DNA from: Candidatus Gottesmanbacteria bacterium | GTDB lineage: Bacteria > Patescibacteriota > Microgenomatia > UBA10105 > UBA927 | Length of the DNA: 64,000 nucleotides | Reading direction: 5' to 3' | Assembly (NCBI GenBank): GCA_023245335.1 | Contig: JAHFKK010000001.1 | Span: 17,918 to 81,917 of the forward strand | Part shown: in pieces, positions 11,922-29,963 of the stretch | How the letters are laid out: the number at the start of each line of letters is the position of its first letter | Position numbering within the stretch: position 1 is the first letter of the stretch | Made by a program: the position numbers and the translations under genes | The notes under the pieces: model-generated | The model's input: only the letters and a program-made list of their open reading frames with translations | Databases searched by the model: none | Told to the model about the DNA's origin: nothing

Positions 11922-12707
11922 TCACGTCCGCCTTCCTAACTGACTCCGGAGCTTCCATAAGTTTACCAGATAATCCGTCGTATCCCGAATGATATTAACG
12001 GATGAATGCTTATCAAACCGCCGCAAAAACAAGACCGGCTCTTCTTTAATCCTCAGTCCCGCGCGCCTCGCATATACCATGATCTCCGTATCCCAAAACC
12101 ATCCCGGGTTTCTGGCTTTCGACAACACCGGAAGGATCTTTTTCCGGGAAAAAAATTTGTACCCAGTTTCAGTGTCTAAGCCCCCCGTGCCGATCATTTT
12201 ATCCGACAACCACTGATAACCGCGGCTTAAAATCTCCCGCAGCGCCGCGCGCGGACTGGTACGGTAGTACCGTTTACCTATGACGACATCCGCTTCTCCC
12301 GAAAGAACAAGCGAAACCAGCTTCGGCATATAGATAGGGTCTACTTCACAATCGATATCCATATATCCCACTATTTTCCCCTTTGCGGCCCGTATACCAT
12401 CCGATACGGTCCGTCCCCGACCGCGATTGACCGCATGGAAAACGGCCCGGTAACGGAAAATCCCGGTAGTTTTACACGTGTCCTTAATAAATTTTTGTGT
12501 TCCGTCGGAACTCGCATCATCGACAAATATCACCTCATGGGAAAGCTTCGAGGCCTCAAGGACAGATTGAATACGGGCTACACTACTCGTAAATAGTCCC
12601 GCTTCGTTATAACACGGTAAAATGAGGGATAAATCCAATCCGCGTTTCATCCTGGGGTATAGTACGATAGTTAGTGACCGTTGACAAGAATATTCATTAC
12701 CGCTCAT
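11922..12707 (-). CDS. GT2 glycosyltransferase, DPM1-like (polyprenyl-phosphate sugar synthase)
   Basis: LSLILPCYNEAGLF...VIFVDDASSDGT...DGIRAAKGKIVGYMDIDCE. Confidence 0.8.
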   Translation of the reverse strand: MSGNEYSCQRSLTIVLYPRMKRGLDLSLILPCYNEAGLFTSSVARIQSVLEASKLSHEVIFVDDASSDGTQKFIKDTCKTTGIFRYRAVFHAVNRGRGRTVSDGIRAAKGKIVGYMDIDCEVDPIYMPKLVSLVLSGEADVVIGKRYYRTSPRAALREILSRGYQWLSDKMIGTGGLDTETGYKFFSRKKILPVLSKARNPGWFWDTEIMVYARRAGLRIKEEPVLFLRRFDKHSSVNIIRDTTDYLVNLWKLRSQLGRRT

Positions 12708-14211
12708 ACATACCGGGTATCACCGGAACGGAATGAAAATGAGCCGTGATATAGGAAACGTCAGCGGCAGGAAGACCCTGCAGTCGACCCAATTTCCCTT
12801 CATACATATAGTGGGTTTGCGTCACTTCCAGAGCTTTGGAAAGGGACGGTAGCGAGCGGCTAAGGAACGGTATCCATTGTCCGAACGGCACACCCGACAC
12901 ATAGTACGGATCCTTGTAATAAATGGTAGAGCCCACAAGATCAAAAACATACGAATCCTTCGGAACCGCCGTTATGACGTCGTGAAGAATCGTATAATCA
13001 CTTCTATTCGTAAGTGCCAGTTTGGGCTCATTTACCCGAATGTTTACCTCAAAGAGAACAAAAAGCAGTGTGATACACGTAACGGCAAAAAGTATCGATC
13101 CCGCGACAGTACGCATGAGGCGCAGTCGAAGTACGTGTATAAAATCCGCAGCATAAAACGCGGCAAACACGGAAACGGGAATGAGGTATTGTTCATTTCG
13201 CATCGGATAGCCATGAGTAAATGTCAGGACATAGGCAAGCATCGATCCCCCGATTAGGACCTCTGCCCACGCGCCCTTCTTCCCGTTGGGCAAAAACGGC
13301 GTCACGAGACGAACTGATCCCATGATAAGTCCTGTGAGCCAAATTGCATGATTCGCGATAAGACCGCTTCCTACTCCATCCCCTCCGTATAGGAGGCCGT
13401 TGGGATAAAAAAACTGATACGGCATAATCGGAAATATCTCGCCCAAACGGTTGACTTCGAGCGGCAACTTTGTCAAAGAGTAGACGACCGTATTAAATTG
13501 TCCGAGATTCCTTGCTACTGCCGCTATCCAAATGCCGAATACGACAATCGGCATCCCCAACCCGAAAATGAAATACCACATACTCCTCCCCCGACTCCTC
13601 CGCTCACCGCAAAAAAACCACACTGCTGTTATCGCAAGTGCGACAGCCACCTGGGGTAATGTTTTCGGCAATATAAGAAGTGAAGCCGAGTACGACAGGC
13701 CGCTCAATAACCACGATCGATATTTCTTATCGTCTGAGAATGCATGAATATGGAATATCATGCCGAGAATTACAAGGAGCATAGAGAGGCTATCCGGCCT
13801 GATCTCCAAAAATTTATCTGCCGGGATCGGCATGAACGCGAGAAAGACTCCCGCAAGAAGTGCCACCCAGGTTTTTCGAACCTGCCAAAATAGAATAACT
13901 GTGGACGTCACGATCCCGGTAAATACGACTCCCGCAAATACCCTTCCGGCAAGTAATATGGACGTGCCTCTTGCAAGCCAAAATAGTGGAGCGAGGGTAT
14001 ACAAAAATCCCGGCGGGACATACGAAAGGAAATCGACAAACGGAAGCCGTCCTACGAACACGTTGTGCGCCCAATGGAGGTAGGCCATTTCATCGGCGTC
14101 AAAATACCGAATCATACCGACCCGCCACCGCCACCACAAAAAAATGATACATAACAAGGCAGTCAGGAAAATAGGTATACTTCGGACAATGCCGCGCATT
14201 TGTTTTGTCAT
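12697..14211 (-). CDS. GT-C membrane glycosyltransferase, GT39/ArnT/PMT-like
   Basis: About 12 TM helices. First periplasmic loop carries the DE motif (RYFDADEMAYLHWAHN) characteristic of ArnT/PMT GT-C enzymes. Confidence 0.7.
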   Translation of the reverse strand: MTKQMRGIVRSIPIFLTALLCIIFLWWRWRVGMIRYFDADEMAYLHWAHNVFVGRLPFVDFLSYVPPGFLYTLAPLFWLARGTSILLAGRVFAGVVFTGIVTSTVILFWQVRKTWVALLAGVFLAFMPIPADKFLEIRPDSLSMLLVILGMIFHIHAFSDDKKYRSWLLSGLSYSASLLILPKTLPQVAVALAITAVWFFCGERRSRGRSMWYFIFGLGMPIVVFGIWIAAVARNLGQFNTVVYSLTKLPLEVNRLGEIFPIMPYQFFYPNGLLYGGDGVGSGLIANHAIWLTGLIMGSVRLVTPFLPNGKKGAWAEVLIGGSMLAYVLTFTHGYPMRNEQYLIPVSVFAAFYAADFIHVLRLRLMRTVAGSILFAVTCITLLFVLFEVNIRVNEPKLALTNRSDYTILHDVITAVPKDSYVFDLVGSTIYYKDPYYVSGVPFGQWIPFLSRSLPSLSKALEVTQTHYMYEGKLGRLQGLPAADVSYITAHFHSVPVIPGMYER

Positions 14212-14263: not shown

Positions 14264-15943
14264 ATGCGTAAAGGCCTCACGGAAAAATTCGCGGTTATTC
14301 TCATAGGCATTGCTATCGTCATCATCGATCTTTGGCACGTCATCACCCAGTGGATAGCAAACCCACCCGACCGGTATTTCACCGGAATCGCTCACTATTA
14401 TGCGGACTATTTTCTCTACATATCCCAAATTGCCCAAGGAATTTCCGGAAATTGGATCATGGCCAATCACATGTATACGAACGAAAAATTACCGCCGGCA
14501 TGGATATACTGGCCGAATGTCCTTGCGGGCCGGATCGGGAGCGTCTTCACTCATTCTCCATTTCTCATCTATACCATCGGTTTAATACTCGCAGTCATCC
14601 TCCTCCTTATACTCATGTGGAGACTCGTGACGGAAATATTTCCGAAACGCCCAACCACACAAATCGTCGCATTTTTTCTTGCCTGTACAGCATCAAATTT
14701 TGCCGATATGCGGGCGTTATTTTCCCAAAATTCTTTCCGCATCGTCGGCGATACATGGTTTTCCCCGACACCGGCCCTCAACCGATTTGGGGGCGTCCCC
14801 CACCAAACACTCCAAACGATTCTCCTCCTTTTAACCGTCTTCCTTTATACCCGAATACCTCATAAACCATCCCTGAAATCGACGGCGCACCTGTGGCGCA
14901 TCGCGGGATTTATCGCTGTAAGCTTCCTCTCGGCGACACTATCTCCAATTCAGATGCTATTAGTGTGTGCGTCCTTGTCCATAACAACACTCATCTCCGA
15001 ACGATTCAAATTCACTCACCGTCTCTATTACCTTGCTATCGCTTCCGGCCTCGCGTCTGCTTTCCTCGGCGCATTTCTTGTCAATCACGCCTTTGATACG
15101 ACTCCTATTTTTGCCGCGGCCAAATCATTTGAACTTTCTCAACGCGTTTCCATGGCCTTGGTGCCGTTTCTCATCGCTATGGGACCGATAATCCTTCTTA
15201 TTCCTTTCGGGGTATACGCCTATCTTCGGAAACCAACTCCTCTCAAAATCGCTCTCCTTATATACGGCGTCGCATCGCTTGTCGCCTTTTTCTCGCCCTT
15301 GCCGCTTTTTTTGGGTACCGCCAACGTGCGTTGGCTGCATCCTGCTTCATACATTATTTTCCCACTTCTTGCGGCTGAAGCTATTATGACGGTATCTACA
15401 TGGTTGAGTTCCCGATTCCTTCACACCCAAAGAAAAATATTCTTCACGCTTTTTTATACGTTGATAATCAGCGCATACCTCTGTACGACAATTCCTTCGC
15501 TCATCGCCCAAGTCGTCGCCCGTAGTAGCCGGGAAACCGCCCCGGTTTTATTTAGCGATCTTAACCACGTCCCCAAAGATGCGGTAGCCGCATTTGCGGC
15601 ACTCAAAACATACCCGCAGAGCGGAATTGTGCTCACCGATCCCGGCCTACCGTATGACCTCCTTGTACCCATATTTACCGGTAAACCGTCTTTTACCGGT
15701 CATCCCATCCATACGCTCTACCCCTCGACGAAAGAAACGTTGCGCCAAACATTTTTTGGCGGGAAGATGACTGAAAGAGAGGCAAAACAATTCCTTAATG
15801 ATCACCGAATCGCGTATCTACTCGTCGCAACGGCAAATAAATCTGCCGTGTTACGATATTCCTTCGTCTCTCAACGATTTGACAATGGCTCACTGACGAT
15901 CTGCGCCATAGATACTGCCCACATAAACGTGCGGACGCAGTAA
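14264..15943 (+). CDS. Polytopic membrane protein, putative GT-C glycosyltransferase (paralog family member 1)
   Basis: About 12 TM helices. N-terminal loop motif DYFLYISQIAQG and FGGVPHQ. Paralogous to 21812..23497 and 25531..27090. Confidence 0.55.
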   Translation: MRKGLTEKFAVILIGIAIVIIDLWHVITQWIANPPDRYFTGIAHYYADYFLYISQIAQGISGNWIMANHMYTNEKLPPAWIYWPNVLAGRIGSVFTHSPFLIYTIGLILAVILLLILMWRLVTEIFPKRPTTQIVAFFLACTASNFADMRALFSQNSFRIVGDTWFSPTPALNRFGGVPHQTLQTILLLLTVFLYTRIPHKPSLKSTAHLWRIAGFIAVSFLSATLSPIQMLLVCASLSITTLISERFKFTHRLYYLAIASGLASAFLGAFLVNHAFDTTPIFAAAKSFELSQRVSMALVPFLIAMGPIILLIPFGVYAYLRKPTPLKIALLIYGVASLVAFFSPLPLFLGTANVRWLHPASYIIFPLLAAEAIMTVSTWLSSRFLHTQRKIFFTLFYTLIISAYLCTTIPSLIAQVVARSSRETAPVLFSDLNHVPKDAVAAFAALKTYPQSGIVLTDPGLPYDLLVPIFTGKPSFTGHPIHTLYPSTKETLRQTFFGGKMTEREAKQFLNDHRIAYLLVATANKSAVLRYSFVSQRFDNGSLTICAIDTAHINVRTQ

Positions 15944-15944
15944 T

Positions 15945-17600
15945 ATGCTTGTGATGAAAAAAATACTTCATTGGATGACTATCAATCCCGGCTTCGTGTT
16001 GGTTTTCGTTTTTTTGGTGGTAGAGCTTGCCGTCATGAATGATTACGGCCTGACGTGGGATTTTCATTTCCATTTCTTCGGCGGAGGAAAACTCTTGGGC
16101 TACAGCTGGCAACAACTCGAATCCCGCCCGCTCCCTTATGTAGAGCCGGATCCAAGAAACGCTTGGACATTGCCGTACGGTCCCCTCATGAGCATACCCC
16201 CGGTCGCATCATTCCTCCTTTTGCATAATGCGTGGCACGTTTTAGCCTTCGACAATGCATACAATCTCCCGATTATTCTCTGGGGTGCAATTGGCGTCGC
16301 CATACTCTATCTCTTTCTTGATGAAGCATTTGGGAAACGGGTCGCATTACTCGGCGCGTTGTTTTTAGCATTGACCCCCCGATACGTAGGAGACTTGCAC
16401 AACAACATGAAGGATGTGCCATCCGCAGTGTCGTTTGCACTCAATATATGGCTTCTCTGGCGCCTCGCGAAATTCCGTAAGCCAATCGACCTCCTGTGGG
16501 CCATCCTTGCCTTTGCACTAGCTTTCAATGTCAAAATCAACAGTGTCTTCATACCGGTCGTCTTTGGTATATGGCTGCTTCTTACCCATGCGACAATTCC
16601 CAAAATAAAAACGCTTCTCAACCTGAAAAAACCGTTTATTTGGTTTTTTGTCCTCGCGCCGCTTGCTGCGTTCTGGGTATGGGCTATCTTTTGGCAGCAT
16701 CCGATTGCCCAAATTATCCAGGCATACTCAACCTTCGGCATCGGGACCAATAATATCGAAGTCTTACTGAACGGTTCGTGGTACTGCTCCGGCTCTACCG
16801 TCCCGTGGTATTACCCGTATTGGTATATGGCCATTACGACGCCTCTCCCCATCCTCCTCCTTTTTCTCACGAGTATCGCCGTGACCATTGCCGGCCGTAC
16901 ATCAAAGCTTGCACCGACACTCTTTCTTTTTCTGCTGTGGTTCTTTATCCCACTCACCCGGTATTTCCTCCCGACAATCGGAGTCATAGATGGCGTACGG
17001 CACTTCGAAGAAGTTCTCTTCCCCATTGCAGCACTTGCTGCAGTTACACTCGACATCCTGCTTACACTCATGGGGCGCGTTAGAAAACGAGGCATGGGAA
17101 TAGCTCTTTTGATAGGAATCATGGCGTGGTTAGGATGGAATATTGTTTCGTACCATCCGTATGAAATTACGTACTTTAACGAATTAGTGGGGGGTGTCCA
17201 TGGAGCATTCAGTAAATACGACCTGGACTACTGGGGCACGAGTCAGAAGGCGGCAATAAAATGGGTAAATTCTCACGCGCCGCAGAATGCAAAAGTGCAT
17301 ATCGTCATGGCCGCAGATGTCGCGGGGATGTATCTTCGGTCGGATTTACTTCCCAACCTCAATAAATTCGGGTACGACGAGTCAGACTTTGTTGTATTTC
17401 TTAACCGCCAATCATTCTTTTATCGGTTTTTCTACGCATACGAATACTTATTGCGGCATACACCGACGTACACAGTAAGCGTCCACAACACACCGCTAAC
17501 TTGGGTATTTGATAACCGGACCCATAACACGACACCGCGTCAGACCCCGTGGTGGCAGGCAGAAGATCCGTGCATCTTGCCATACTGGCACGCGAGATAA
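15945..17600 (+). CDS. Polytopic membrane protein, GT-C/PMT_2-like glycosyltransferase
   Basis: 551 aa with many TM helices and ArnT/PMT-like topology. Starts 2 nt after the upstream gene. Confidence 0.55.
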   Translation: MLVMKKILHWMTINPGFVLVFVFLVVELAVMNDYGLTWDFHFHFFGGGKLLGYSWQQLESRPLPYVEPDPRNAWTLPYGPLMSIPPVASFLLLHNAWHVLAFDNAYNLPIILWGAIGVAILYLFLDEAFGKRVALLGALFLALTPRYVGDLHNNMKDVPSAVSFALNIWLLWRLAKFRKPIDLLWAILAFALAFNVKINSVFIPVVFGIWLLLTHATIPKIKTLLNLKKPFIWFFVLAPLAAFWVWAIFWQHPIAQIIQAYSTFGIGTNNIEVLLNGSWYCSGSTVPWYYPYWYMAITTPLPILLLFLTSIAVTIAGRTSKLAPTLFLFLLWFFIPLTRYFLPTIGVIDGVRHFEEVLFPIAALAAVTLDILLTLMGRVRKRGMGIALLIGIMAWLGWNIVSYHPYEITYFNELVGGVHGAFSKYDLDYWGTSQKAAIKWVNSHAPQNAKVHIVMAADVAGMYLRSDLLPNLNKFGYDESDFVVFLNRQSFFYRFFYAYEYLLRHTPTYTVSVHNTPLTWVFDNRTHNTTPRQTPWWQAEDPCILPYWHAR

Positions 17601-17611
17601 CATACGCACAT

Positions 17612-19027
17612 ATGCAGATCACACCACATACATCCCGGATTTCCTTCCGGACTCTCATCTCTGCGATAAGTTTGTATGCCCTGATCCATTTCTTTTTTTT
17701 GTGGATGTATACCAACATCGATGGATATTTTTACTGGGCAATAGGTCAATACCTCAAAACCGGTGTATATCCATTTGTCTCTCCGTTTATATACGCAATG
17801 CCAATCACCATATCGCCGCCTTTGTACGGAATATTCATTGCGTTTATCGGCTCGATACCGGCAGGAGATATCATCCTGCATGGAATACAGATTCTTCTCA
17901 TGACGACCACAACACTTCTACTGTACCGTCTACTTCTCACGTCAATCAAACCATATGCAGCGACCATTATAAGCATCCTCTTTCTTTTGTTTCCGGTTAA
18001 CGTCATCTACACCGGCTCCATGATGACCGAATTGGCGGCCCAAACCACGATGACAATATATCTTTTCCTTGTCTATCGGTTTACCAAAACAAAGAATATT
18101 TCTTTTCTGGCTTCCGCGATACTTCTTACCGGATGCATGACGCTCCTCAAATATCAATTTGTAATCCTTTTTATCTTTACAATAAGCTATCTGGTAGTTT
18201 CTTTCCCTAAAAAACAGTCACTCTCTCATTTCAATGGACTAAAGGTTTTCTTTGCGGTCGTTGTCATCACCACCTGGATTATCACCAACCACTCGATGAC
18301 CGGCGTCTGGGGGCTATCCGATACCAAAAAAATGCCATTTTATACGAACTTCGTATGGGATGGGAGGCACTTTCCCAAAAAAACAGATCCGTCAGTTATC
18401 GCTTTACGTCAATATGTTCCCCCTACAGCTGACCGCTACGCTGAATATTGGGATTTGCAGGGATATATCCTTCCCTATGCGCATAATGACTGGCGGGTCG
18501 TGGATGAACTTCTGGGGAATGTCGGGATTGCGGCAATCAAAACATATCCGATCGAATACATGCTGAACGGTATACGGGTATTTGTGCAAACGCTCGCCAG
18601 TCATAGCCCCTGGTGGTACAACCTACAGACCTTCGGATCCATTGACCCCGTACAACCGGTCAATTGCACCCGATTAGGAACCATTCAGTTCTGCCGGCCC
18701 ATCATCATGACCCCCTGGTCATACCCTATCTGGAACCGATATGTTGCCATATCAGCGAAGATATATAACATACTCGTTCCTTTATTACTCCTCTTTCTAT
18801 TCTTACCTTCACTGGTGATTACGTTACTGGATAAACGGATACGTATATACAGTATCATCTATCTTGTAAGTCTCGTTCCCATCTCCTATCTTGCCATGGT
18901 GGAATCACGCTACCTTATCCCGTATTATCCGCTCATAATTATCATTTGCGTCCAGGGAGTGAAAAATGCACGCGCCATACTGTCGCGCCTTGCGAACCGA
19001 ATGCAAACCAAAAAAGCAAAAGAATAG
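17612..19027 (+). CDS. Polytopic membrane protein, putative GT-C glycosyltransferase
   Basis: Multi-TM protein with loop motif TNIDGYFYWAIGQYL. Start chosen at the Met after the upstream stop; the longer ORF from 17549 overlaps the upstream gene. Confidence 0.5.
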   Translation: MQITPHTSRISFRTLISAISLYALIHFFFLWMYTNIDGYFYWAIGQYLKTGVYPFVSPFIYAMPITISPPLYGIFIAFIGSIPAGDIILHGIQILLMTTTTLLLYRLLLTSIKPYAATIISILFLLFPVNVIYTGSMMTELAAQTTMTIYLFLVYRFTKTKNISFLASAILLTGCMTLLKYQFVILFIFTISYLVVSFPKKQSLSHFNGLKVFFAVVVITTWIITNHSMTGVWGLSDTKKMPFYTNFVWDGRHFPKKTDPSVIALRQYVPPTADRYAEYWDLQGYILPYAHNDWRVVDELLGNVGIAAIKTYPIEYMLNGIRVFVQTLASHSPWWYNLQTFGSIDPVQPVNCTRLGTIQFCRPIIMTPWSYPIWNRYVAISAKIYNILVPLLLLFLFLPSLVITLLDKRIRIYSIIYLVSLVPISYLAMVESRYLIPYYPLIIIICVQGVKNARAILSRLANRMQTKKAKE

Positions 19028-21071
19028 AAATAACGCTGATCCCTCCCCCGATAAGAAAAATTTTCGGGCGGTATTCATAAATGATCACATGATTTCCCGG
19101 TAATACATAAAGTGTTCGGAACGTACCATTTAGCTTGTTAATAGGTACTTCTTTCCCATCTACGGTCGCGTGCCAGCCCGGATACCATACCTCTGAACTG
19201 TTGAGTTCGCTATTGCAGGAAGAGGTGAGACTGATCCGTACCGTATTGGGTGTGTATGAAGTGACTAACGGCGTTCCGCAGGCAGGATTTGCCAGAAAAA
19301 ATCTGGGTTGGACCGTCTGATTTTGGTACACATGAAAACGCGCGGCTGTATTCACCATTACGGGGAGGTATCGTGAATTACCAGCAAAGGGATCGTACTC
19401 CATGGGCACGATAATGTATTTAATATTGAGAAAATCCAAAGCTTCTGGGCTTTGGGGAGTCAGATATGGCACTTGTACGTCCTGCAAAAGAATCGCTTTG
19501 TCACTCGCCATCATGGCAGAACGGGACATGAAGTCGTAGTAGCGACGAAGTATGGACGGGTCATAACCGGTCGCAGAAAATATTTCGTAACTCATCACCC
19601 CATCAAAATCCAGAGCGTCCCGCTGGGGCAACCAAACCCCAAAATCCTGCAAGACCCGATATGGCTGCGTATCTTTTTTCAGTAAGGCAATAAGCGCCTG
19701 ATCATGTCGCGCTTCCGGTACCGGTTTCAACTCGATAAATCCTCGACCGAACCACATCAACTCTCCGACAACACACACTGCCAATATTATCTGGATCACT
19801 TTCGGCCGCACCGCCGACAAACCTATACCAGCGAGCCCCGCAAGCCCAAACACTACCAAAATAAGATGTCTCGTGGGAATCCGCAGGTACTTATACATAG
19901 GAAGGAATTTCCAGAGGAAGTACTGCAAATCCAATGGCGCATTCGGTCCGAGACTCATCCAGATACCAAAAATAACAATGAAAATAAATACCATTCCCGC
20001 GAACATATCCGGATTTTTCTCTTTTATAACCCGGTGACCTCCAAATAATCTCCGCACGATACGTACTCCCCCAATGATTGCGAGTAACAAACCACCGATC
20101 CCCACAAATACGCTGTGTTCTATAAAGTTCGGCGGCGGGCCTATATACGTATGCTGATTACCGAAAAAAAACGGATTCAAAAACTGCATCAGGCTCTGCC
20201 AGGTCCAAGATCCGTATGAAATCCACGAATAGGGAAACGAATATGTGCGTATGCTGGATCGAAAAAATTCTTGTTCCGGCAAGATTTGGAGAGCGGCAAG
20301 ACCCAAGCCCAGCACCCCGGCTGCCATCGCACAGATAACCGGTATAAAACTGCGGCGGATCACACTAACGACCACAGTCATCAGTCCGACAATATAAACC
20401 GTAAAAAACGCCATCGTCTGATACCCGGCAAACAGTTGCATGGCAAACACAAACGAGGCAAGTGCCAGACGCCTCGACGCACCGGGAGAAAAGAATTTTT
20501 CGCGGGATGTAATTAACCGGTAAAACGCCCACGCTACCCACGGCATCCAGCTCGCCGCAGCGATGACATCCACATGCCCGGCCCACGTACGAGCCATGAA
20601 GAATCCGGACAACCCGAAGACCAAGCCGCTCACCCAAGCAGCCAAATTAAATTCATTCCTTCTTTTTGTTAACGGTAAACTGTTACCTGTTACCTGTTTA
20701 CTAAGTACATACATCCCCGTCATAGCCCAAAGCACATGAAATGCGACGTGCCATGAATACGCGGTGTTGATGGGTAAAAGGACAAACAACCAATTAGGCG
20801 GATACCATATATTGACGATGGGATCTGCAATAAACGGCTGTCCCCCAAATAGATATGGATTCCACCACGGGAATATGCCCAAACGTAACCAGTAGTTAAA
20901 AAATTCTCTGAAATAATAGTACTGATGATGAATGTCATCACCAAAAAGAAGCATCCCCTTCCCTGGGATTAAGGCTCCCCCAAAAACAAGAGATATGACG
21001 ATGCCGTAGGAAACGATCGGTATTCCCCAACGAACGAGTGAGCGCTTCATGCGATGCCCCAAGCGTATCAT
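18942..21071 (-). CDS. YfhO-family membrane protein (putative glycosyltransferase for cell-surface glycopolymer/protein glycosylation)
   Basis: N-terminal YfhO signature GDDIHHQYYYFREFFNYW...PWWNPYLFGGQPF and C-terminal WYPGWHATVDGKEVP motif. 709 aa, polytopic. Confidence 0.7.
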   Translation of the reverse strand: MIRLGHRMKRSLVRWGIPIVSYGIVISLVFGGALIPGKGMLLFGDDIHHQYYYFREFFNYWLRLGIFPWWNPYLFGGQPFIADPIVNIWYPPNWLFVLLPINTAYSWHVAFHVLWAMTGMYVLSKQVTGNSLPLTKRRNEFNLAAWVSGLVFGLSGFFMARTWAGHVDVIAAASWMPWVAWAFYRLITSREKFFSPGASRRLALASFVFAMQLFAGYQTMAFFTVYIVGLMTVVVSVIRRSFIPVICAMAAGVLGLGLAALQILPEQEFFRSSIRTYSFPYSWISYGSWTWQSLMQFLNPFFFGNQHTYIGPPPNFIEHSVFVGIGGLLLAIIGGVRIVRRLFGGHRVIKEKNPDMFAGMVFIFIVIFGIWMSLGPNAPLDLQYFLWKFLPMYKYLRIPTRHLILVVFGLAGLAGIGLSAVRPKVIQIILAVCVVGELMWFGRGFIELKPVPEARHDQALIALLKKDTQPYRVLQDFGVWLPQRDALDFDGVMSYEIFSATGYDPSILRRYYDFMSRSAMMASDKAILLQDVQVPYLTPQSPEALDFLNIKYIIVPMEYDPFAGNSRYLPVMVNTAARFHVYQNQTVQPRFFLANPACGTPLVTSYTPNTVRISLTSSCNSELNSSEVWYPGWHATVDGKEVPINKLNGTFRTLYVLPGNHVIIYEYRPKIFLIGGGISVISILLLFWFAFGSQGATVWRVHFSLPGRK

Positions 21072-21808
21072 ACTTTTTCTGCGACGACGACGAGGCTGGC
21101 GCCAAAAGGCAGATGACCCCGGAAAATAATAGTGTCTGCACGCAATATGGTCAGTAATATCCTATTGAAAAGCGGGTTTGGCATCGTAAGGTACTGCATG
21201 ATAAGATCCTCCCTCCCCTTGCCCGCCATCAAACGCCACATGATGTATGCGGGTAATAATATCGAATTCCAATACCCCATATGCCTCACCCGCAAACCGG
21301 ATTCCGCAAAAAGCTCCCGGAGTCCGTCTTTGGTGTATCGGCGTTTATGACCGGACAGCACATCGACTGATGACCATAAATACTTTTCTGCTGGGACAGT
21401 CAAAAAAAGTAGTCCTCCCGATATCAGTAAATTTTTGCACTGCCGTAAAAACGCCGCGTCATCACCGATGTGTTCCATGACGTCAAATGCGCCTAACGCG
21501 GCAAATGGACGTTTGGGGTGATACTGGAATATCGTGGAACGTACGAGCGTGCTGTCTGTTCTCCGTTTCGCATAGGAGAGTGCACGCGCGTTTATGTCGA
21601 GCCCAGTAGCCACAAATTTCAGCTGTTCCAGGTATTCCAGCGTTACCCCTGTCCCGCATCCGATATCCAAAAATGTTTTTCCCTGAGGGTTCTGCACATA
21701 TCGACCGATAAGTCCTCTGATCATTTCATCCCTGCCGACAAACCAAAAGTGTTCGGCTTCAACCTCATGAATATGCTGATAGTGTGACGCGCGGTAGAAT
21801 CGGGACAT
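21068..21808 (-). CDS. Class I SAM-dependent methyltransferase
   Basis: Motif I FLDIGCGTGVTLEYL and post-I acidic residue, then LLISGGLLFLTV. Its start overlaps the stop of the downstream gene by 4 nt. Confidence 0.75.
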   Translation of the reverse strand: MSRFYRASHYQHIHEVEAEHFWFVGRDEMIRGLIGRYVQNPQGKTFLDIGCGTGVTLEYLEQLKFVATGLDINARALSYAKRRTDSTLVRSTIFQYHPKRPFAALGAFDVMEHIGDDAAFLRQCKNLLISGGLLFLTVPAEKYLWSSVDVLSGHKRRYTKDGLRELFAESGLRVRHMGYWNSILLPAYIMWRLMAGKGREDLIMQYLTMPNPLFNRILLTILRADTIIFRGHLPFGASLVVVAEKV

Positions 21809-21811
21809 AGT

Positions 21812-23497
21812 TCAACGGGAAGTATACACGGTGACCGTCGGATTTGTGTACGCCTCGGTCAGAAACGGATAGCACTCTGTAAGCACTTTGCCCCCGGCTT
21901 CTTCCCGTTCCTGTGGGCCAAAGAATATCACATGCGTCGGTATCGTACTCAGCCAGGCCTTCGCTTCTTCGGCACTCATCGCGCCCGAATAGAATTTCGA
22001 GACGAGAACTTTCTTCACTTCTGCATTCACAGTGTTGTCATGACCCACGTAGACCGTATTGCCGCTGTAGACCGGCATGTAATTCCCGGCCGTCGTTTCC
22101 GACAGAATGACGTCGGTCCTTTTTGTCTGATCTTCAAGATAGAGCATCGCGGTATAAAAGTCCTTCAATGGATACATAACATAACTGCCGGTAGGGACCA
22201 GTGGCGTCGTTGCCCGGATTTTGTGATCCACGAAGTCCTTTTGCCACAGAAACGACGAATACATTTGTCCTATTCCCAAAATAATAAGTGCTGTCGGGAG
22301 GAGTACGGCGAGAAACCGGACCGCGGAACGCGTTTTTTCATACATTACCGAGACTGCATACGCCGTGAGTATCCCCAGGGGTACATGAGGAATCATTTCC
22401 GAAAACCGTAACGGACTTTGCTGCGGGACAAATTGAAATACTCCCAAAAGGATGAGCCACGCCAAAACCCAGGCGACCGCGGGGTACATAGCGGTTTCAC
22501 CGCTCACGAGGGCGACGATAACGCCAATAACTCCAAGCGGCAGCATCGGCCCTAAAGCTTTGCCGTATTCCCCATACTGAAACGGTAATGGGTGCAGGAC
22601 ATCCAACTCCGTCAGACGTTTCCACGGATAAACGCTCGTTATGAGGGCAAGATATATAAGCGCGATACTGCTCATGACGGCTATCGCAGCATACGGCGTG
22701 AGCCACGCACGCATTTTGGCAAATCGAAGGAGGCCATATACCCCAAGGACGGCGAATAAAAATATAAGTCCGGGAGGAAATATGACACCAAGGACACATG
22801 CCAAAACTCCCAAAAATAAAACATTGCCGGACTTACGTATGACGGAGAAATCAGTGAGCGCCATAACCAAAAAGATGATGAGACTCTGTCCTGCCAATAA
22901 ATGCGGGATAAAGGTAATCCGTTGAAGACTGTCCATGACGGACCACCAAGGCATGTAACCTCCGAATCTTGGAGATCCATCGACAGAGGTGAGAATTGGC
23001 CAGGAGCTTGCGGTGACCGCCAGAAGAAATCCAATGATCGCAATACTTTTGCGGCGGCCCGCAGTAAATATGCTCTGACTAAATGCGGCAATAAGGGCAA
23101 GGATAGTAAATCCCAATATCACACGAGCCGCATGATAAACATCCCCACTTCTCCCCTGCGGCACGCCTATCCAACGGCCCATATCTCCCATGAGGACATA
23201 CATTTCCTGAATGACTGATCCGTTATGCGGTTCCGAAGTGTACTTTTCTACGACCGTCCAGCGCCCTTCCAAACCTTCACGGATGCGGGACAAATAGAAG
23301 TTGTAGTCCGTATAGAAATTGTGGACTAATTCGAAGTGACGATCCGGCTGAAGGTCCCCCGCATGGTTCAGCTCATAAAATGTCGAGATCAAAGAAAATA
23401 CGACAAATGCTGTGATAAGTATCTGCCACGTCCACCTCATGCGTTTCGCGTTTCCCTCGGCTGTTTTCTCGATGCCTTCCCTGCTCATACGTACCAT
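21812..23497 (-). CDS. Polytopic membrane protein, putative GT-C glycosyltransferase (paralog family member 2)
   Basis: Shares DYNFYLSRIREG and FGGYMPWW motifs and a C-terminal soluble domain with 14264..15943 and 25531..27090. Confidence 0.55.
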   Translation of the reverse strand: MVRMSREGIEKTAEGNAKRMRWTWQILITAFVVFSLISTFYELNHAGDLQPDRHFELVHNFYTDYNFYLSRIREGLEGRWTVVEKYTSEPHNGSVIQEMYVLMGDMGRWIGVPQGRSGDVYHAARVILGFTILALIAAFSQSIFTAGRRKSIAIIGFLLAVTASSWPILTSVDGSPRFGGYMPWWSVMDSLQRITFIPHLLAGQSLIIFLVMALTDFSVIRKSGNVLFLGVLACVLGVIFPPGLIFLFAVLGVYGLLRFAKMRAWLTPYAAIAVMSSIALIYLALITSVYPWKRLTELDVLHPLPFQYGEYGKALGPMLPLGVIGVIVALVSGETAMYPAVAWVLAWLILLGVFQFVPQQSPLRFSEMIPHVPLGILTAYAVSVMYEKTRSAVRFLAVLLPTALIILGIGQMYSSFLWQKDFVDHKIRATTPLVPTGSYVMYPLKDFYTAMLYLEDQTKRTDVILSETTAGNYMPVYSGNTVYVGHDNTVNAEVKKVLVSKFYSGAMSAEEAKAWLSTIPTHVIFFGPQEREEAGGKVLTECYPFLTEAYTNPTVTVYTSR

Positions 23498-23513
23498 TCT
23501 AGCCGAACTCGTG

Positions 23514-23542
23514 TTGACTTTACACCTGCCTACTTAGATAAT
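23514..23542 (+). promoter_or_regulatory. Sigma70-like promoter (TTGACT-17-GATAAT) directly abutting the ATG of the RmlC-like gene; leaderless or very short leader
   Basis: TTGACT at 23514..23519, a 17-nt spacer, GATAAT at 23537..23542, ATG at 23550. AAGGAG at 23544..23549 lies too close to the ATG to act as a spaced SD. Confidence 0.45.
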
Positions 23543-23549
23543 TAAGGAG

Positions 23550-24104
23550 ATGAGCGCCCCACTTACGGATGAATCCATTGATAATAAAGTCAGAAATACC
23601 GTCTATGTCCAAGACTACAGCGCGAAACCCAAAATTGACGGTGTGGTCATCCTGACCATCAAAAATTTTGTCGGGGAAAACGGTGATTTTTCCGAACTCC
23701 TGCGTTTAAATGATGAGGGTGAATCAGAGCAGATTCCGGGATTCCGGCCCCGCCAGATAAACAGAAGCAAACAATATAACAAAGCAATCAAAGCGTGGCA
23801 TCTTCATTATCGCCAAGATGAAATCTGGTACGTCCCCCCGGACGAACATCTCCTTTTGGGCTTATGGGATGTGCGGGAGGGTTCTGCTACCAAAGATACG
23901 ACACAAAAAATTCCTCTGGGCGGCGGCAACTCCATCGCTGTCTACATCCCCCGGGGTGTCGCCCATGGGGCGGTAAATTTTTCAGGCAAAAAAACGAACG
24001 TCTACTACTTCGTAAATAATCAGTTTGACCCCGCCAATCCTGACGAACAACGTTTACCATGGGACGCCCGTGGTGCTGATTTTTGGCTTGCCCAGCGTGA
24101 CTAA
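23550..24104 (+). CDS. RmlC-like cupin (dTDP-4-dehydrorhamnose 3,5-epimerase / sugar 3,4-ketoisomerase family)
   Basis: Alignable to RmlC: WHLHYRQDEIWYV...IPRGVAHGAVNFSGKKTNVYYFVNNQFDPANPDEQRLPWD, compared with E. coli RmlC ...[38 protein letters not shown]. Confidence 0.75.
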   Translation: MSAPLTDESIDNKVRNTVYVQDYSAKPKIDGVVILTIKNFVGENGDFSELLRLNDEGESEQIPGFRPRQINRSKQYNKAIKAWHLHYRQDEIWYVPPDEHLLLGLWDVREGSATKDTTQKIPLGGGNSIAVYIPRGVAHGAVNFSGKKTNVYYFVNNQFDPANPDEQRLPWDARGADFWLAQRD

Positions 24105-24802
24105 TGCGGCAAATTACAAGTCTCTCCATCTTTTTCCCAAGCCTCAACGACGCCCAATCACTCCCCTACATGGTTACCCGCGCATACGAAGCCGCCCGGT
24201 CTATCACTCATAATTTTGAAATCATCATCATAGACGACGGCTCGACGGACGACACCCTACGGGTCGTCTCGGAATTACGGCGACACTATCGTCACCTCCG
24301 GCTTGTCACGCATCCCAAAAACCGCGGATATGGCGGTGCGTTGATATCGGGATTTACGGCGGCAAAAAAAGAATGGGTATTTTATACCGACGGAGACGGC
24401 CAATATGACCCATCGGAACTCACACTCCTTATCAACAAGGCCTCTTCACGTACGGACGTCGTGAACGGATATAAGGAAAAAAGACACGATCCGCTCATGA
24501 GAATCATCGCCGGATCTATCTATAACTGGTTCATCCGGATTATTTATCACCCGCCGATACGTGATATTGATTGTGATTTCCGTCTCATTCGACGCTCACT
24601 GTTGAAACGGTTGGACCTCACATCACAATCAGGAGCAATTTGTCTGGAACTCGTGACCAAACTCCATCACCGGGGTGCACGATTCCGAGAGGTCGCCGTG
24701 CATCACTATCCCCGGCTATTCGGACGATCTCAATTTTTCTCACTCCGGCGGATTGCCAAAACTATCGAACAACTTCCTCCGGTAACGCATCATATGTATT
24801 AA
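24104..24802 (+). CDS. GT2 glycosyltransferase (DPM1/GtrB-like)
   Basis: SIFFPSLNDAQ...EIIIIDDGSTDDT...GGALISGF...YTDGDGQYDP. Start overlaps the upstream stop (ATGA-type junction). Confidence 0.75.
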   Translation: MRQITSLSIFFPSLNDAQSLPYMVTRAYEAARSITHNFEIIIIDDGSTDDTLRVVSELRRHYRHLRLVTHPKNRGYGGALISGFTAAKKEWVFYTDGDGQYDPSELTLLINKASSRTDVVNGYKEKRHDPLMRIIAGSIYNWFIRIIYHPPIRDIDCDFRLIRRSLLKRLDLTSQSGAICLELVTKLHHRGARFREVAVHHYPRLFGRSQFFSLRRIAKTIEQLPPVTHHMY

Positions 24803-24820
24803 AAAAGAATATGCCCGTCA

Positions 24821-24850
24821 TTGAAATACCCGTAACATATTCTTTATACT
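24821..24850 (+). promoter_or_regulatory. Sigma70-like promoter (TTGAAA-18-TATACT) 7 nt upstream of ATG 24858
   Basis: TTGAAA at 24821..24826 and TATACT at 24845..24850, with no SD between the -10 and the ATG. Confidence 0.35.
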
Positions 24851-24857
24851 GCAGACA

Positions 24858-25526
24858 ATGGAAACCGAACCCGATGCACCTTCCAATATTCTCTTTCCCG
24901 CGCTTCTCATAAGTATCGTGTTACTCGGGATAGTTTATATCGCCTTCCAGGCGGCGAAAGCCCGTCCCGACAGGATAATTTTGCCCGGCGGTATTACGTA
25001 TCTCGGTCCTTCCGTGACACCGACGCCTGCTGCAAACTCCTCGACAGGCAACCTTGATGCCATTCTCATTCCTTCAAATCCCACATGGGCAACGTATAAA
25101 GGAAAACTTTTCCCCTACACATTCACCTACCCATCGACACTTTCTTTAGGCTGGTTTCCGAACGATCCGTATGACGCAGTCACCGTGTTTTACGGAAAAA
25201 CCGATGCAAACAAAAATGTATTCTTCCGCGTCGATGACCTCACCAAGCTTCATAAAACCGCATATACCGGGAACGTAAAAGGATATGCCCAAAGCTGGTG
25301 GAAAGACTATTCGTGGAAGGGAATTTCTTCCATCACACCATTTACAAATGGTAAAGGGCTGAAAGGATATCGCGCAACATATATCGACCAGTCGGACAAA
25401 ACGCCGTACGATCACGTATTTTTCGAGACTCCCCAAAGACGCGACCTCATTATATGGATAAGCGGCAAAATCTTTCCGCGGGAAATGTTCGATAAGATAG
25501 TTGATAGTGTCCAGTGGAGCGACTAA
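24858..25526 (+). CDS. Hypothetical membrane-anchored (signal-anchor) exported protein
   Basis: N-terminal TM helix (ILFPALLISIVLLGIVYIAF) followed by an aromatic-rich soluble domain. No recognised family. Confidence 0.45.
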   Translation: METEPDAPSNILFPALLISIVLLGIVYIAFQAAKARPDRIILPGGITYLGPSVTPTPAANSSTGNLDAILIPSNPTWATYKGKLFPYTFTYPSTLSLGWFPNDPYDAVTVFYGKTDANKNVFFRVDDLTKLHKTAYTGNVKGYAQSWWKDYSWKGISSITPFTNGKGLKGYRATYIDQSDKTPYDHVFFETPQRRDLIIWISGKIFPREMFDKIVDSVQWSD

Positions 25527-25530
25527 ATTC

Positions 25531-27090
25531 ATGCAACTTACTCTTGCGTTCATCATTATCCTTCTTGCTACCCTAGAAAACGTCTGGCCGATAATCGCGG
25601 GGTTCCAAGCGGCACCCAAGGGTGTGGTGTTTTTGGGCACCATACACCATTCCGGCGACTACTTCTATTATTTATCGCAGTTTGCCCAAGGGGCGACGCA
25701 CTGGCTTATGGGGCGGGATCTCTATACGTCTGAATCCGTTCCCCCAGTCCTCGTCGGATGGTCTAATATATTTTTCGGGCACATCTTCCATCTCGTCGGT
25801 TTCTCGCAGATCAGCGCGTATCACACCAGTGTCATTATCCTAACGATACTCCTTATGGCTTGCGGCTATAGACTGGCATTCTCCGTATTCGGATCCCGAC
25901 GTCCGTCGATCCTCACCCTCTACCTTTTTGTCCTCTATCATGCATTCCCGATACGGGATCACGGAACACTTACCTACAGCGATTATTGGAATAACTACGC
26001 AATCCCGAACGTCCGTTTGGGCGGCGTGCCACACCAGCTCTTCACAGCAATTATCTCAATAATCGCTCTTTTTGGAATAATCGACTGGTTGAAAGCCTCC
26101 CAAAAACGACAATGGGGGCATATATCCATCCTCACGGTATCCGGATTAATGCTTGCTTCACTACAGCCGGTCTTGTGGGCATTGCTTGTGATAAGTTCCG
26201 GTGCGACTTTACTTATATATGGACTATCACAAAAGTATAAACTAAAACAATTGAGTACTTTGTGTATACCTGTTATATGTATAGGAATCGGCGGAATTTT
26301 TCCGGCTTTATACCTGACTAAATTATTTTCCCAACTCCCGTTTTTGCAACTCAAGCTCTGGGAATCTGTCCAACAGAATCAATTGTCGTTTTCGCATTTC
26401 ATTCTTGCGACCGGACCGATATTCCTTATCGCCATAATTGCAGTGCCTTCTTTTCTGAAGGCAAAAACTCCGGAAAAGCTCATCCTTGCGATATTTGCCG
26501 GCAGCTCACTGCTTCTTTCAATCTCCCCGATCCCCGCACTCATAGGCATCACCCAAGTCCGCTTCATGTCGACCCTCACTATTCTCGCCTTTTCTATAAT
26601 CGCCGCGTACGGCTTATGGAAATGCTTCCACGGGAAGCCACTTATCATCATTCTTGCGCTTCTTACTGCCATCCTCCTTCCGAGTCATCTCAAAACGATC
26701 AGTCTCACTAGCGCATTTGATCCGGGGAACGCGTACCAGTACCTATCCGCTTCTGACTACACATTTTTACAAACCGCAGCGAAAGTAAGTAAGGATGATG
26801 AGGATGTCTTCCTTATTATATGGCCGTACGACGTCATTTTCCCCGGGCTCACCGGCAGGCGCAGCTTCAACGGACACACACTCCTCACAATTCATTCGGC
26901 CCAAAAAGACAGCATGTCCCAACTTTTTTTTGACGGATCTATGTCGGAGGTTGAAATGCGTAATCTTCTGATCACAAACCATGTCGGCTATGTATTAGGC
27001 TACACCTGGAGTCCCAAACTTGAACTTCTCCCGTTCCTTACGCGCGTAACTTCTTCACCGAATCTGGTTTTATACCGGGTCGATAAATAA
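25531..27090 (+). CDS. Polytopic membrane protein, putative GT-C glycosyltransferase (paralog family member 3)
   Basis: Shares DYFYYLSQFAQG, LGGVPHQ and a C-terminal FDGSMSEVEMRNLL region with the other two paralogs. Start taken at MQLTLAFIIILL just after the upstream stop. Confidence 0.55.
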   Translation: MQLTLAFIIILLATLENVWPIIAGFQAAPKGVVFLGTIHHSGDYFYYLSQFAQGATHWLMGRDLYTSESVPPVLVGWSNIFFGHIFHLVGFSQISAYHTSVIILTILLMACGYRLAFSVFGSRRPSILTLYLFVLYHAFPIRDHGTLTYSDYWNNYAIPNVRLGGVPHQLFTAIISIIALFGIIDWLKASQKRQWGHISILTVSGLMLASLQPVLWALLVISSGATLLIYGLSQKYKLKQLSTLCIPVICIGIGGIFPALYLTKLFSQLPFLQLKLWESVQQNQLSFSHFILATGPIFLIAIIAVPSFLKAKTPEKLILAIFAGSSLLLSISPIPALIGITQVRFMSTLTILAFSIIAAYGLWKCFHGKPLIIILALLTAILLPSHLKTISLTSAFDPGNAYQYLSASDYTFLQTAAKVSKDDEDVFLIIWPYDVIFPGLTGRRSFNGHTLLTIHSAQKDSMSQLFFDGSMSEVEMRNLLITNHVGYVLGYTWSPKLELLPFLTRVTSSPNLVLYRVDK

Positions 27091-28100: not shown

Positions 28101-29963
28101 ATGCGACTTCATGCTACGGTAAAGCGTCACATTTTACAGCTAGCCATCCTGTTTGCTCTTTTCTTGCGCATCTCACTTATATTCAACCCCGGATTTGAAG
28201 CGGATGTTTCATTCTGGAAATCATGGGGGCTTGCCACATACGATAAAGGCATTGTTGAAGGGATGAAAATCACCAACAATAACTACCCTACCCCATTTGC
28301 GTATGTCCTGGGCGGCATGGTGTGGATCTACAGCCGTTTTGCCGACCCGCATAGCTTCAACACGTTTTGGAATAGTACGAATGTCCTTTTTCTTGCGGTC
28401 AGTAAAGCATTCCCGATACTCGCTGACTTTGGTATTGCCGCTCTCATTTTATACATCGGTAAAAATACAAAGAAGTTAGGATTTCCAGATATACCGTTTT
28501 CCGTATTTGGTTTGCCTTTCTATGAGCTATTAACTATTTGCTATTTACTGAGTCCATTAAGTCTTATAGACGGGGCGTGGTGGGGCCAGGTTGACTCACT
28601 CGGCGTCTTCGTATTTTTTTGCTCGCTCATCTTCGCTCTCAAGCGTCGGCCGTTCTTTGCCGGACTCTTTTTTGTAGTGGCCATGATGACCAAACTTCAG
28701 AATATGATCTACGGACCGATATTTTTTTTGTTCATCTGGCAGATGGAGGGATACAACGGACTCATTCAGGCGCTTGGGGGGGCGGTCATAGGATTTTTTG
28801 GACTCAACATAGAATTTTTCCTCACCCGCAATATGGATCGGGTGCTTGCAAACCTCACGGAAAATTTTGATTACTTTCCCTGGATGAGCCTCAACGCTTT
28901 CAACCTCTGGTGGATAGTGAGCGGCGGCCACGGCATGCAGGTATCGGATAAGCTTCTTGCTCTTGGGATAGTGAACGCAAAAACAGTGGGATTAATACTA
29001 TTTTCGGGTTTTTATCTTTTCGCCATGATCCAACAGTTTTTTACCGGAAGTACCTCCGTAACCCGTCGGACAACGGTGCAGGGATTTCTTACGAGTCTCA
29101 TACTCGTCAATGCCGCATTTTTTCTATTCCAGACCCAGTCACACGACCGGTATGCATTCCCCCTCTCGGTTTTTCTCCTTCTCTGGGCGCCGTTTTATAT
29201 ATCACAATTCTCGTCACCCGCTACTCAGAACTCGCGCCTCAAACTATTTACTATTTACTATTTACTCTTTACTCTCTTCTATTTTTATAACCTCCACACA
29301 GCGCTCGTCGTCAACTATCCGCTCAATGGTTTACCCATTCTCTCCTCCTTCACCCAACCGGCGTTTACGATGACGACCGCGGTCATACTCCTTGTGCTTT
29401 TTGGGGTATTTATCATGACGGTAATCCGTTCTTCCCGGCGCTCAATGAACTATGCACTGCTCTCGACGGGTGTCGTCGTCGTGGCTCTCATATTTCTCAA
29501 TAAACCGCTTCTGACTAAACAACCGGTCTCCCTGACAAAATTCGTGCCGTATATAAGCGAACAAGCCTATGGAACGCGCCAAACCAATAGGTCTGTCCAA
29601 AGTTCGTTCGGCGGGCCCACCAGCTGGACCAGACTTTCAGACCAGTACGTATTTTATCGCCTCGGCATAGGAACACACGCTAACTCCCGTCATGTCTTTG
29701 ACCTCAATGGACTGTTTAAACGATTTACGACAGATTTCGGTATCGACACGGAGGCCGGCACGAAATCGAGCGCTGTGTTTGAAGTCTATGGCGACGGCAA
29801 GCTCCTGTTCCGATCAGGAGAGGCCATGGGCCGCTTCGACCTACCAAAACACGCCGACGTGAACGTTATCGGCGTCAAATCGCTCACCCTCATCACGACC
29901 GACGCGGGAGACGGCAACTATGACGATCACACCGACTGGTTCAATCCGCAGCTTTGGCCATAA
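28101..29963 (+). CDS. Polytopic membrane protein (GT-C-like) with C-terminal NPCBM carbohydrate-binding module
   Basis: Roughly 400 aa of TM helices, then a ~120-aa NPCBM/NEW2-like domain (GIGTHANSRHVFDLNG...FGIDTEAG...FEVYGDGKLLFRSG...GVKSLTLITTDAGDGNYDDHTDWFNPQL). Confidence 0.6.
   Translation: MRLHATVKRHILQLAILFALFLRISLIFNPGFEADVSFWKSWGLATYDKGIVEGMKITNNNYPTPFAYVLGGMVWIYSRFADPHSFNTFWNSTNVLFLAVSKAFPILADFGIAALILYIGKNTKKLGFPDIPFSVFGLPFYELLTICYLLSPLSLIDGAWWGQVDSLGVFVFFCSLIFALKRRPFFAGLFFVVAMMTKLQNMIYGPIFFLFIWQMEGYNGLIQALGGAVIGFFGLNIEFFLTRNMDRVLANLTENFDYFPWMSLNAFNLWWIVSGGHGMQVSDKLLALGIVNAKTVGLILFSGFYLFAMIQQFFTGSTSVTRRTTVQGFLTSLILVNAAFFLFQTQSHDRYAFPLSVFLLLWAPFYISQFSSPATQNSRLKLFTIYYLLFTLFYFYNLHTALVVNYPLNGLPILSSFTQPAFTMTTAVILLVLFGVFIMTVIRSSRRSMNYALLSTGVVVVALIFLNKPLLTKQPVSLTKFVPYISEQAYGTRQTNRSVQSSFGGPTSWTRLSDQYVFYRLGIGTHANSRHVFDLNGLFKRFTTDFGIDTEAGTKSSAVFEVYGDGKLLFRSGEAMGRFDLPKHADVNVIGVKSLTLITTDAGDGNYDDHTDWFNPQLWP

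Follow-up and report, generated by a model that had tools for sequence, protein, structure and literature searches.

Three paralogues of an unannotated membrane protein family, probably GT-C_A glycosyltransferases, in a Gottesmanbacteria glycan-synthesis island

Three paralogous genes at the locus

The window, the whole 64,000-nucleotide stretch of DNA analysed here, comes from an ultra-small bacterium of Candidatus Gottesmanbacteria (Patescibacteria; assembly GCA_023245335.1, contig JAHFKK010000001.1, positions 17,918 to 81,917 of the forward strand; coordinates below are relative to the window). It contains three genes for polytopic membrane proteins, labelled A, B and C (Table 1), which lie within a glycan-synthesis island of about 33 kb, as annotated with Pfam. 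An earlier note on this DNA had proposed that the three form a paralogous family, recognizable by two shared motifs and perhaps made up of uncharacterized, lineage-specific glycosyl or polymer transferases. The three open reading frames (ORFs) are present as that note had placed them, except that B is encoded on the minus strand. Judged by their sequences, A, B and C are real genes and true paralogues, and they are probably glycosyltransferases of the GT-C_A class.

Pairwise BLASTP comparisons relate all three proteins. A and C are 27% identical across approximately 520 residues (E=6e-44), and B and C are 22% identical over their full length (E=4e-7). A and B match over residues 35–180 (E=2e-11), with a second match in the C-terminal region (E=2e-5). 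The C-terminal similarity quoted in the earlier note is likewise real, appearing both in the alignment and in the BLASTP match between A and C. A family hidden Markov model (HMM), built on 63 diverse members and run unfiltered on every six-frame ORF of at least 80 residues in the window, matched only the ORFs of A, B and C (536, 527 and 347 bits). The description of the family as three-membered is therefore correct for this window. The next ORF, at E=0.025, is the neighbouring 504-residue polytopic protein (hereafter poly504), and we treated this score as non-significant. A collection of 5.8 billion proteins contains sequences identical to A and B (P0001 and P0231, on a 1,218,111-bp NCBI contig). 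C has no 100% match there, its best match being 66% identical; in the public annotation, C may have been given a different start or be missing.

The paralogy thus stood up, whereas the two motifs did not hold as they had been written. The first, DY[FN][FL]Y[IL]S.I..G, is found in A (DYFLYISQIAQG) and B (DYNFYLSRIREG) but not in C (DYFYYLSQFAQG); it generalizes to D-Y-[FN]-x-Y-[IL]-S-x-[IF]-x-x-G. The second, FGG[VY]P, is literal only in A: C reads LGGVPHQ, and the FGGYMPWW segment of B is not equivalent. Both MAFFT and BLASTP align LQRITFIPH of B with LNRFGGVPH of A. FGGYMPWW, located some ten residues upstream of LQRITFIPH, aligns instead with IVGDT-WFSP of A, and the proposed equivalence of FGGVPHQ and FGGYMPWW was a misalignment. 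The true common signature at this position is R-x4-P-H (R174, P179 and H180 in A; R193, P198 and H199 in B; R162, P167 and H168 in C).

Conservation was assessed over the 63 diverse members and motifs were counted over 403 family proteins. Six positions are invariant (D48, G59, G89, R174, G307 and R356 in A numbering) and ten are nearly so (H44, Y49, F50, Y52, Y103, P179, P228, P469, T484 and K490). D48, which corresponds to D64 in B and D43 in C, is the sole invariant acidic residue. Further conserved basic residues are R356 and K490 in A, R364 in B, and R344 and K459 in C. The C-terminal domain of A (residues 422–559) carries the motif G479-H480..T484..K490, and the corresponding G-H..T.....K pattern is present in 351 of the 403 proteins.

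A large family without annotation

Searches of the 5.8-billion-protein collection returned 107 homologues of A, 471 of B and 63 of C, none with a precomputed Pfam domain. Among the matches listed, identities were 37–56% for A, 52–63% for B (119 listed besides B itself) and 41–66% for C. All source names read 'hypothetical protein' and come from Patescibacteria, Gottesmanbacteria or simply 'bacterium'. When 1.84 billion cluster-50 representatives were searched exhaustively with a profile, at least 4316 matched the family at E≤1e-3, 2745 of them reaching E≤1e-10 and 746 reaching E≤1e-30. The suggestion that the family is lineage-specific is plausible, in that every named source belongs to Patescibacteria, Gottesmanbacteria or Woesebacteria, yet with 4316 representatives the family is a large one.

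That the family has no name was borne out by every search made for one. Pfam-A and NCBIfam gave nothing at E≤1 for A, B or C. Pfam matched no family among the 63 diverse members, with a single spurious LpxB match at 0.0096, and the family profile found nothing among 177,635 PDB sequences (a 5-HT6 receptor at E=9.1 was the sole match and amounts to noise). In the literature on GT-C enzymes in Patescibacteria, the candidate phyla radiation or Gottesmanbacteria, and on envelope glycosylation, we found no description of the A/B/C family.

Membership of named GT-C families was considered and rejected. For the oligosaccharyltransferases (OSTs), the motif WWD[YWFN]G occurs in 0 of 403 family proteins, Pfam STT3 gives no match at E≤1 or among the 63 members, and no PDB sequence is matched. 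For ArnT/PMT (GT83/GT39), A, B and C match neither PMT nor PMT_2. For YfhO, GT87 and the DUF-type GT-C families, none of the three matches an HMM. The same searches match neighbouring genes to PMT_2 (two genes), to YfhO and, weakly, to GT87, providing an internal positive control.

Predicted fold and candidate active site

AlphaFold2 models were generated for A and B from alignments of 54 and 52 sequences, respectively. Confidence was high for both, with a predicted local distance difference test score (pLDDT) of 94.8 and a predicted template modelling score (pTM) of 0.93 for A, and 90.2 and 0.90 for B. Foldseek searches of the PDB with a cut-off of E≤1e-3 returned 21 matches for A and 26 for B, at probability 1.0 and with query TM-scores (TMq) of 0.40–0.56. 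All of these are GT-C_A enzymes: STT3/AglB/PglB, DPY19, ArnT, and AftA or AftD. Beyond the cut-off, B has one Pmt4 entry at 0.012; all others begin at E of about 0.04–0.07, and the first outside GT-C are unrelated proteins with TMq of about 0.1. The earlier note had proposed comparing AlphaFold models with GT-C folds, and in that comparison only GT-C_A enzymes, PglB and ArnT among them, were significant.

GT-C_A enzymes are defined by a conserved module of seven helices comprising transmembrane helix 1 (TM1), two juxtamembrane helices (JM1 and JM2), TM2 and a split TM3, and in all of them the tip of JM1 bears an Asp that is essential for catalysis (PMC12041299). The model of A shows this arrangement, with TM1 at residues 3–31, JM1 at 46–60, JM2 at 83–92, TM2 at 99–125 and TM3 split into 130–142 and 149–155. 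The model of B has the same layout (JM1 62–76, JM2 98–109), so that in both models JM1 and JM2 lie between TM1 and TM2. The invariant Asp (D48, D64 or D43) comes third in the JM1 helix, and this position places it at the JM1 tip.

The model of A has 11 TM helices, with the N terminus inside and the C terminus outside. This topology is supported by the positive-inside rule, since the predicted loops hold 13 Lys or Arg among 60 cytoplasmic residues versus 9 among 139 external ones. The last 140 or so residues of A (422–559) form a small α/β domain outside the membrane. The first external loop (EL1) and the conserved polar residues all lie on the outer face in the predicted topology, consistent with an extracytoplasmic active site.

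The second external loop of B contains a β-hairpin (residues 168–179) followed by a low-confidence loop (181–187, pLDDT <50; SPRFGGYMPWWS region). FGGYMPWW comes after the hairpin and covers this loop, and G179, Y181, W184 and S186 are nearly invariant among B orthologues. The insertion is conserved in the B subfamily and missing from A and C, and is thus a candidate specificity determinant.

Gene neighbourhood

The island encodes numerous sugar enzymes: four GT2 glycosyltransferases, a GT4, a Wzy_C-type protein, a GFO/IDH oxidoreductase, two DegT aminotransferases, a hexapeptide acyltransferase and an RmlC-like epimerase. It further encodes two methyltransferases, a PIG-L deacetylase, two PMT_2 proteins, a YfhO protein, a GT87-like protein with an NPCBM domain, and polytopic proteins of 504 and 844 residues. 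Nine polytopic proteins are packed into about 20 kb: four GT-C proteins recognized by Pfam (one of them the sub-threshold GT87), A, B and C, and two that remain unassigned.

Table 1 Paralogues A, B and C and neighbouring features of the window
Feature	Coordinates	Strand	Basis and remarks
GT2 with C-terminal TM helices	9208..10239	-	Pfam
DegT aminotransferase	10248..11384	-	Pfam
Hexapeptide acyltransferase	11381..11920	-	Pfam
261-residue GT2	11922..12707	-	PDB sequences: DPMS 5e-10, GtrB 3e-8, ArnC 1.5e-5
poly504, 504-residue polytopic protein	12697..14211	-	No Pfam or NCBIfam match; divergent from A, 52-bp spacer
Paralogue A	14264..15943	+	ORF, 559 residues
PMT_2	15945..17600	+	Pfam; starts right after the A stop
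PMT_2	17549..19027	+	Pfam
YfhO	18942..21071	-	Pfam
Methyltransferase	21068..21808	-	Pfam; between B and YfhO
Paralogue B	21812..23497	-	ORF, 561 residues; most divergent copy
RmlC-like cupin (dTDP-sugar 3,5-epimerase family)	23550..24104	+	Pfam dTDP_sugar_isom 1.7e-11; first gene of the C operon
232-residue GT2	24104..24802	+	Pfam Glycos_transf_2; C operon
222-residue protein with N-terminal membrane anchor	24858..25526	+	No Pfam match; 4-bp gap to the C ATG, overlaps the C TTG
Paralogue C	25531..27090	+	ORF, 519 residues from ATG; upstream TTG at 25501 gives 529 residues
620-residue polytopic protein	28101..29963	+	NPCBM 2.3e-29 (C-terminal, carbohydrate-binding); GT87 0.0012 (weak)
844-residue polytopic protein	29967..32501	+	No family assigned
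Giant ORF, 10,150 residues	33454..63906	-	Uninterrupted; starts right after the glycosylation island

The four genes at 9208..12707, beside poly504, form a block that is syntenic in at least 20 loci and could make and lipid-link an N-acyl amino sugar. poly504 itself lies beside A orthologues in 20 of 24 loci. Its sequence YFDADEMAY, right after the first TM helix, recalls the acidic EL1 motif of GT-C enzymes, and the protein may represent a further unannotated GT-C family. It showed no profile relation to the A family, either in the family HMM scan described above or with hhalign. The hhalign probabilities of the A family against poly504 and PMT_2 were at most 0.3% (0.3% for PMT_2), so that neither neighbour is a detectable relative.

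Eleven fetched loci carry the RmlC-like cupin of the C operon; it is 74–79% identical in ten of them and 57% identical in the remaining one (L015). The best match of the 232-residue GT2 among PDB sequences is ArnC (E=9e-23, residues 4–217). By this similarity, the protein is an ArnC-like candidate polyprenyl-phosphate glycosyltransferase and could make a lipid-linked donor. The 222-residue membrane-anchored protein is found upstream of C orthologues in 7 of 24 loci (L004–L007, L009, L016 and L019) at 50–56% identity, with C itself visible before the locus end in five of these seven. It could serve C as an accessory or acceptor-binding subunit.

In the first 10,000 residues of the giant ORF, Pfam recognizes a Macro domain, two GNAT domains, a class-A-like β-lactamase and a DnaJ fragment, the rest being mostly unassigned. 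An Rfam scan of the whole window gave no match.

Conservation of the island and age of the paralogues

Gene order is kept in most of the 24 loci obtained from a genome-collection scan. Four blocks recur: on the minus strand, GT2, DegT, hexapeptide transferase, GT2 and poly504; on the plus strand, A followed by one or two PMT_2 genes; on the minus strand, YfhO, an optional methyltransferase and B; and on the plus strand, the RmlC-like gene, an optional GT2, the gene for the 222-residue protein and C. Across these loci, orthologues are 34–46% identical for A, 54–65% for B and 40–58% for C, most C ORFs being cut by the locus end. The locus titles name Gottesmanbacteria, Woesebacteria, Patescibacteria and, for some loci with the same synteny, 'uncultured Gammaproteobacteria'. 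The contigs titled in this last way (L006–L008, L011–L013, L019–L021, L024 and L025; binchicken/TPA co-assemblies) encode proteins 40–78% identical to those of metagenome-assembled genomes of Gottesmanbacteria, and the gammaproteobacterial label is probably a placeholder or an error.

A more distant relative, 36% identical to C, is found in a similar island (L027). This island encodes a GT2 with a C-terminal TM domain, a 230-residue GT2, unannotated proteins of about 530–590 residues (others of 384–498 residues), an NPCBM protein and an 859-residue protein. The pairing of an NPCBM protein with a large protein of about this size, as at 28101..32501 of the window, recurs beside a distant member of the family.

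In a neighbour-joining tree, A, B and C form separate clades. Because each clade holds many genomes, the triplication must be old and each copy has been maintained. Four loci (L013, L018, L020 and L021) carry an extra tandem copy just upstream of the A orthologue. These copies form a clade of their own, sister to A, and the family therefore comprises at least four old subfamilies.

Proposed function and alternatives

We consider it likely that A, B and C diverged long ago as paralogues within a large, unannotated sequence family of GT-C_A enzymes and that they use polyprenyl-phosphate sugars outside the membrane. The GT-C_A fold features are present and membership of the OST, ArnT, PMT, YfhO and GT87 families fails, which makes this a new sequence family inside a known class. 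The earlier suggestion of an uncharacterized family of GT-C-type transferases is thus supported by fold and by genomic context, from which we infer the transferase activity.

In the mechanism that we propose, the RmlC-like epimerase, the DegT aminotransferases and the hexapeptide acyltransferase would produce modified nucleotide sugars in the cytoplasm. The ArnC/DPMS/GtrB-like GT2 proteins would load single sugars onto polyprenyl phosphate, and the lipid-linked sugar would then be flipped to the outer face of the membrane. There, A, B and C would each pass the sugar to an extracytoplasmic acceptor; a glycopolymer of the cell wall, a glycan carried on a lipid and a surface protein are all conceivable. 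The Asp at the JM1 tip would be the catalytic residue, with outer-face basic residues (R174, R356 and K490 in A) holding the donor phosphate. The C-terminal α/β domain, together with subfamily-specific loops such as the hairpin of B, would set acceptor specificity. The three orthologous lineages would have been kept separate because they perform different transfers.

Further features of this mechanism can be suggested. The presence of ArnC/DPMS-like partners, and of Arg, Arg and Lys instead of an acidic metal triad, favours a monophosphate-linked monosaccharide as the donor. The DegT, hexapeptide transferase and RmlC-like genes suggest that an N-acylated amino sugar or a 6-deoxy sugar could be what is transferred. 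The three paralogues probably differ in donor or in acceptor. Such a mechanism agrees with the known multi-component transmembrane glycosylation systems, in which a GT-A enzyme loads a sugar on undecaprenyl phosphate, a flippase moves it outwards and a GT-C enzyme transfers it to a surface polymer (PMC8035078). The encoding of a GT2 together with the GT-C protein is also seen here, the 232-residue GT2 lying in the operon of C and the 261-residue GT2 near A.

Several observations weigh against this assignment. TM-scores to solved GT-C structures are only about 0.5, and the best-scoring structural neighbours are OSTs, which use diphosphate-linked oligosaccharides rather than monophosphate-linked monosaccharides. 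The invariant Asp appears to occupy the GT-C_A catalytic position according to its place in the modelled secondary structure, not according to a three-dimensional overlay. Fold, topology, Asp position and GT2 partners are all predicted, and the chemistry is deduced from these predictions. Finally, no GtrA- or Wzx-type flippase was found in the window, where ORFs of at least 180 residues in 1–33.4 kb were inspected. The flippase may be encoded elsewhere, by analogy with the single, shared CflA of Lactococcus lactis (PMC8035078).

The alternatives differ mainly in what A, B and C would transfer, and how. A tentative one, to which we give distinctly less weight, is that they and the island's remaining polytopic proteins work as a serial extracytoplasmic polymer line resembling the mycobacterial Emb/Aft/PimE enzymes, each adding a specific linkage to a growing, Patescibacteria-specific envelope polymer instead of decorating one already complete. 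The crowding of nine polytopic proteins and the extra tandem copies in some genomes would suit such a line, as would the structural matches to mycobacterial arabinofuranosyltransferases: AftA gives the lowest root mean square deviation (rmsd) and the highest target TM-score (TMt) for B (TMq 0.56, TMt 0.53, rmsd 7.0), and AftD is among the matches of A. However, many GT-C proteins would fit equally well with decoration systems that act independently, of the kind described for Listeria and Lactococcus (PMC8035078), and no UbiA-type or decaprenyl-phosphoribose pathway genes are seen in the window.

A less likely proposal is that A, B and C are OSTs, analogous to PglB, AglB and STT3, and move a preassembled glycan from polyprenyl diphosphate onto surface proteins. 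The lowest Foldseek E-values of both A and B do go to STT3, AglB and PglB, and the Wzy_C-type protein and cytoplasmic GT2 and GT4 enzymes of the window could build a lipid-linked oligosaccharide. The E-values of ArnT, DPY19 and AftA are nevertheless in the same range, and the sequence features of an OST are missing, the family having neither WWDxG nor an STT3 match. The metal site of the PglB OST uses three acidic residues, whereas this family has a single invariant one, with conserved Arg, Arg and Lys instead. Its C-terminal domain is far smaller than the periplasmic domains of OSTs, and its nearest partner genes encode synthases of the ArnC/DPMS type, which make monophosphate-linked sugars.

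It is very improbable that the three are non-catalytic proteins with a GT-C-like helical bundle (transporters, scaffolds or Wzy/SEDS-type polymerases), a notion left room by the indirect case for activity and by the isolation of the family from all curated models: FtsW reaches only E=0.08 and TMq 0.21 in Foldseek, other transporter or SEDS matches lie at TMq of about 0.1, so that a transporter or SEDS/Wzy-like fold was rejected on non-significant matches with TMq of 0.1–0.2, while the Asp at the GT-C_A catalytic position is invariant across the family and conserved polar residues gather on the outer face and in the C-terminal domain.

The assignment of A, B and C to GT-C_A involves a well-known enzyme class, and the mechanism itself is neither new nor surprising. 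What it offers is a description of a family of thousands of sequence clusters that is now without any annotation or Pfam or NCBIfam model: the GT-C_A assignment, the candidate catalytic Asp and the set of motifs would permit systematic annotation of Patescibacteria genomes, and they mark the conserved island as a probable site of extracytoplasmic envelope glycosylation in organisms for whose episymbiotic lifestyle surface chemistry is central. A more speculative extension, which we hold to be rather unlikely, is that A, B and C, jointly with the island's other six polytopic proteins, are the core machinery for a Patescibacteria-specific envelope glycopolymer or glycoprotein coat assembled outside the membrane, either as a serial GT-C line like that of mycobacterial arabinan synthesis or as an OST-like system without WWDYG. 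If true in either variant, this would define a new CAZy glycosyltransferase family and provide a first handle on the envelope chemistry of uncultured episymbionts.

Comparison with known systems

Among known systems, the OSTs STT3, AglB and PglB (GT66) are the closest by structural E-value (1e-8 to 1e-9 for A and B, TMq 0.40–0.56 across all OST matches). The A/B/C family differs from them in lacking WWDxG and any STT3 HMM match, in having one invariant acidic residue and in its much smaller C-terminal domain.

ArnT with ArnC offers a parallel in gene organization: in both cases, a small ArnC/DPMS/GtrB-like GT2 is encoded beside a polytopic GT-C protein of about 550 residues with a small C-terminal domain. 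Amino-sugar genes (DegT and acyltransferase) in the same block are a further likeness both to ArnT and to the Gram-positive three-component systems (CsbB/GtrB, GtcA/GtrA and YfhO/GtlB as the components; PMC8035078). By contrast with all of these, A, B and C match none of PMT, PMT_2 and YfhO, and the window has no GtrA-type flippase. To our knowledge, Patescibacteria are not expected to offer lipid A as an acceptor.

AftA and AftD have the GT-C_A fold that is predicted for A and B, and a comparable genomic setting of many clustered GT-C genes, as for the synthesis of an envelope polymer. They differ in showing no sequence similarity to A, B or C, and no decaprenyl-phosphoryl-arabinose pathway genes are seen in the window.

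The broadest likeness is to the GT-C_A superfamily as a whole, taken here as the class that includes PglB/STT3, ArnT, PMT, DPY19, Aft/Emb, ALG6 and PimE. With it, the models of A and B share the N-terminal module, the Asp at the JM1 tip, the split TM3, the conservation of the outer face and the extracytoplasmic C-terminal domain. Unlike its known members, A, B and C have no detectable sequence similarity to curated GT-C models or solved structures, and they carry a signature of their own: D-Y-x-x-Y, R-x4-P-H, a conserved Arg in the loop between TM9 and TM10, and the C-terminal G-H..T.....K.

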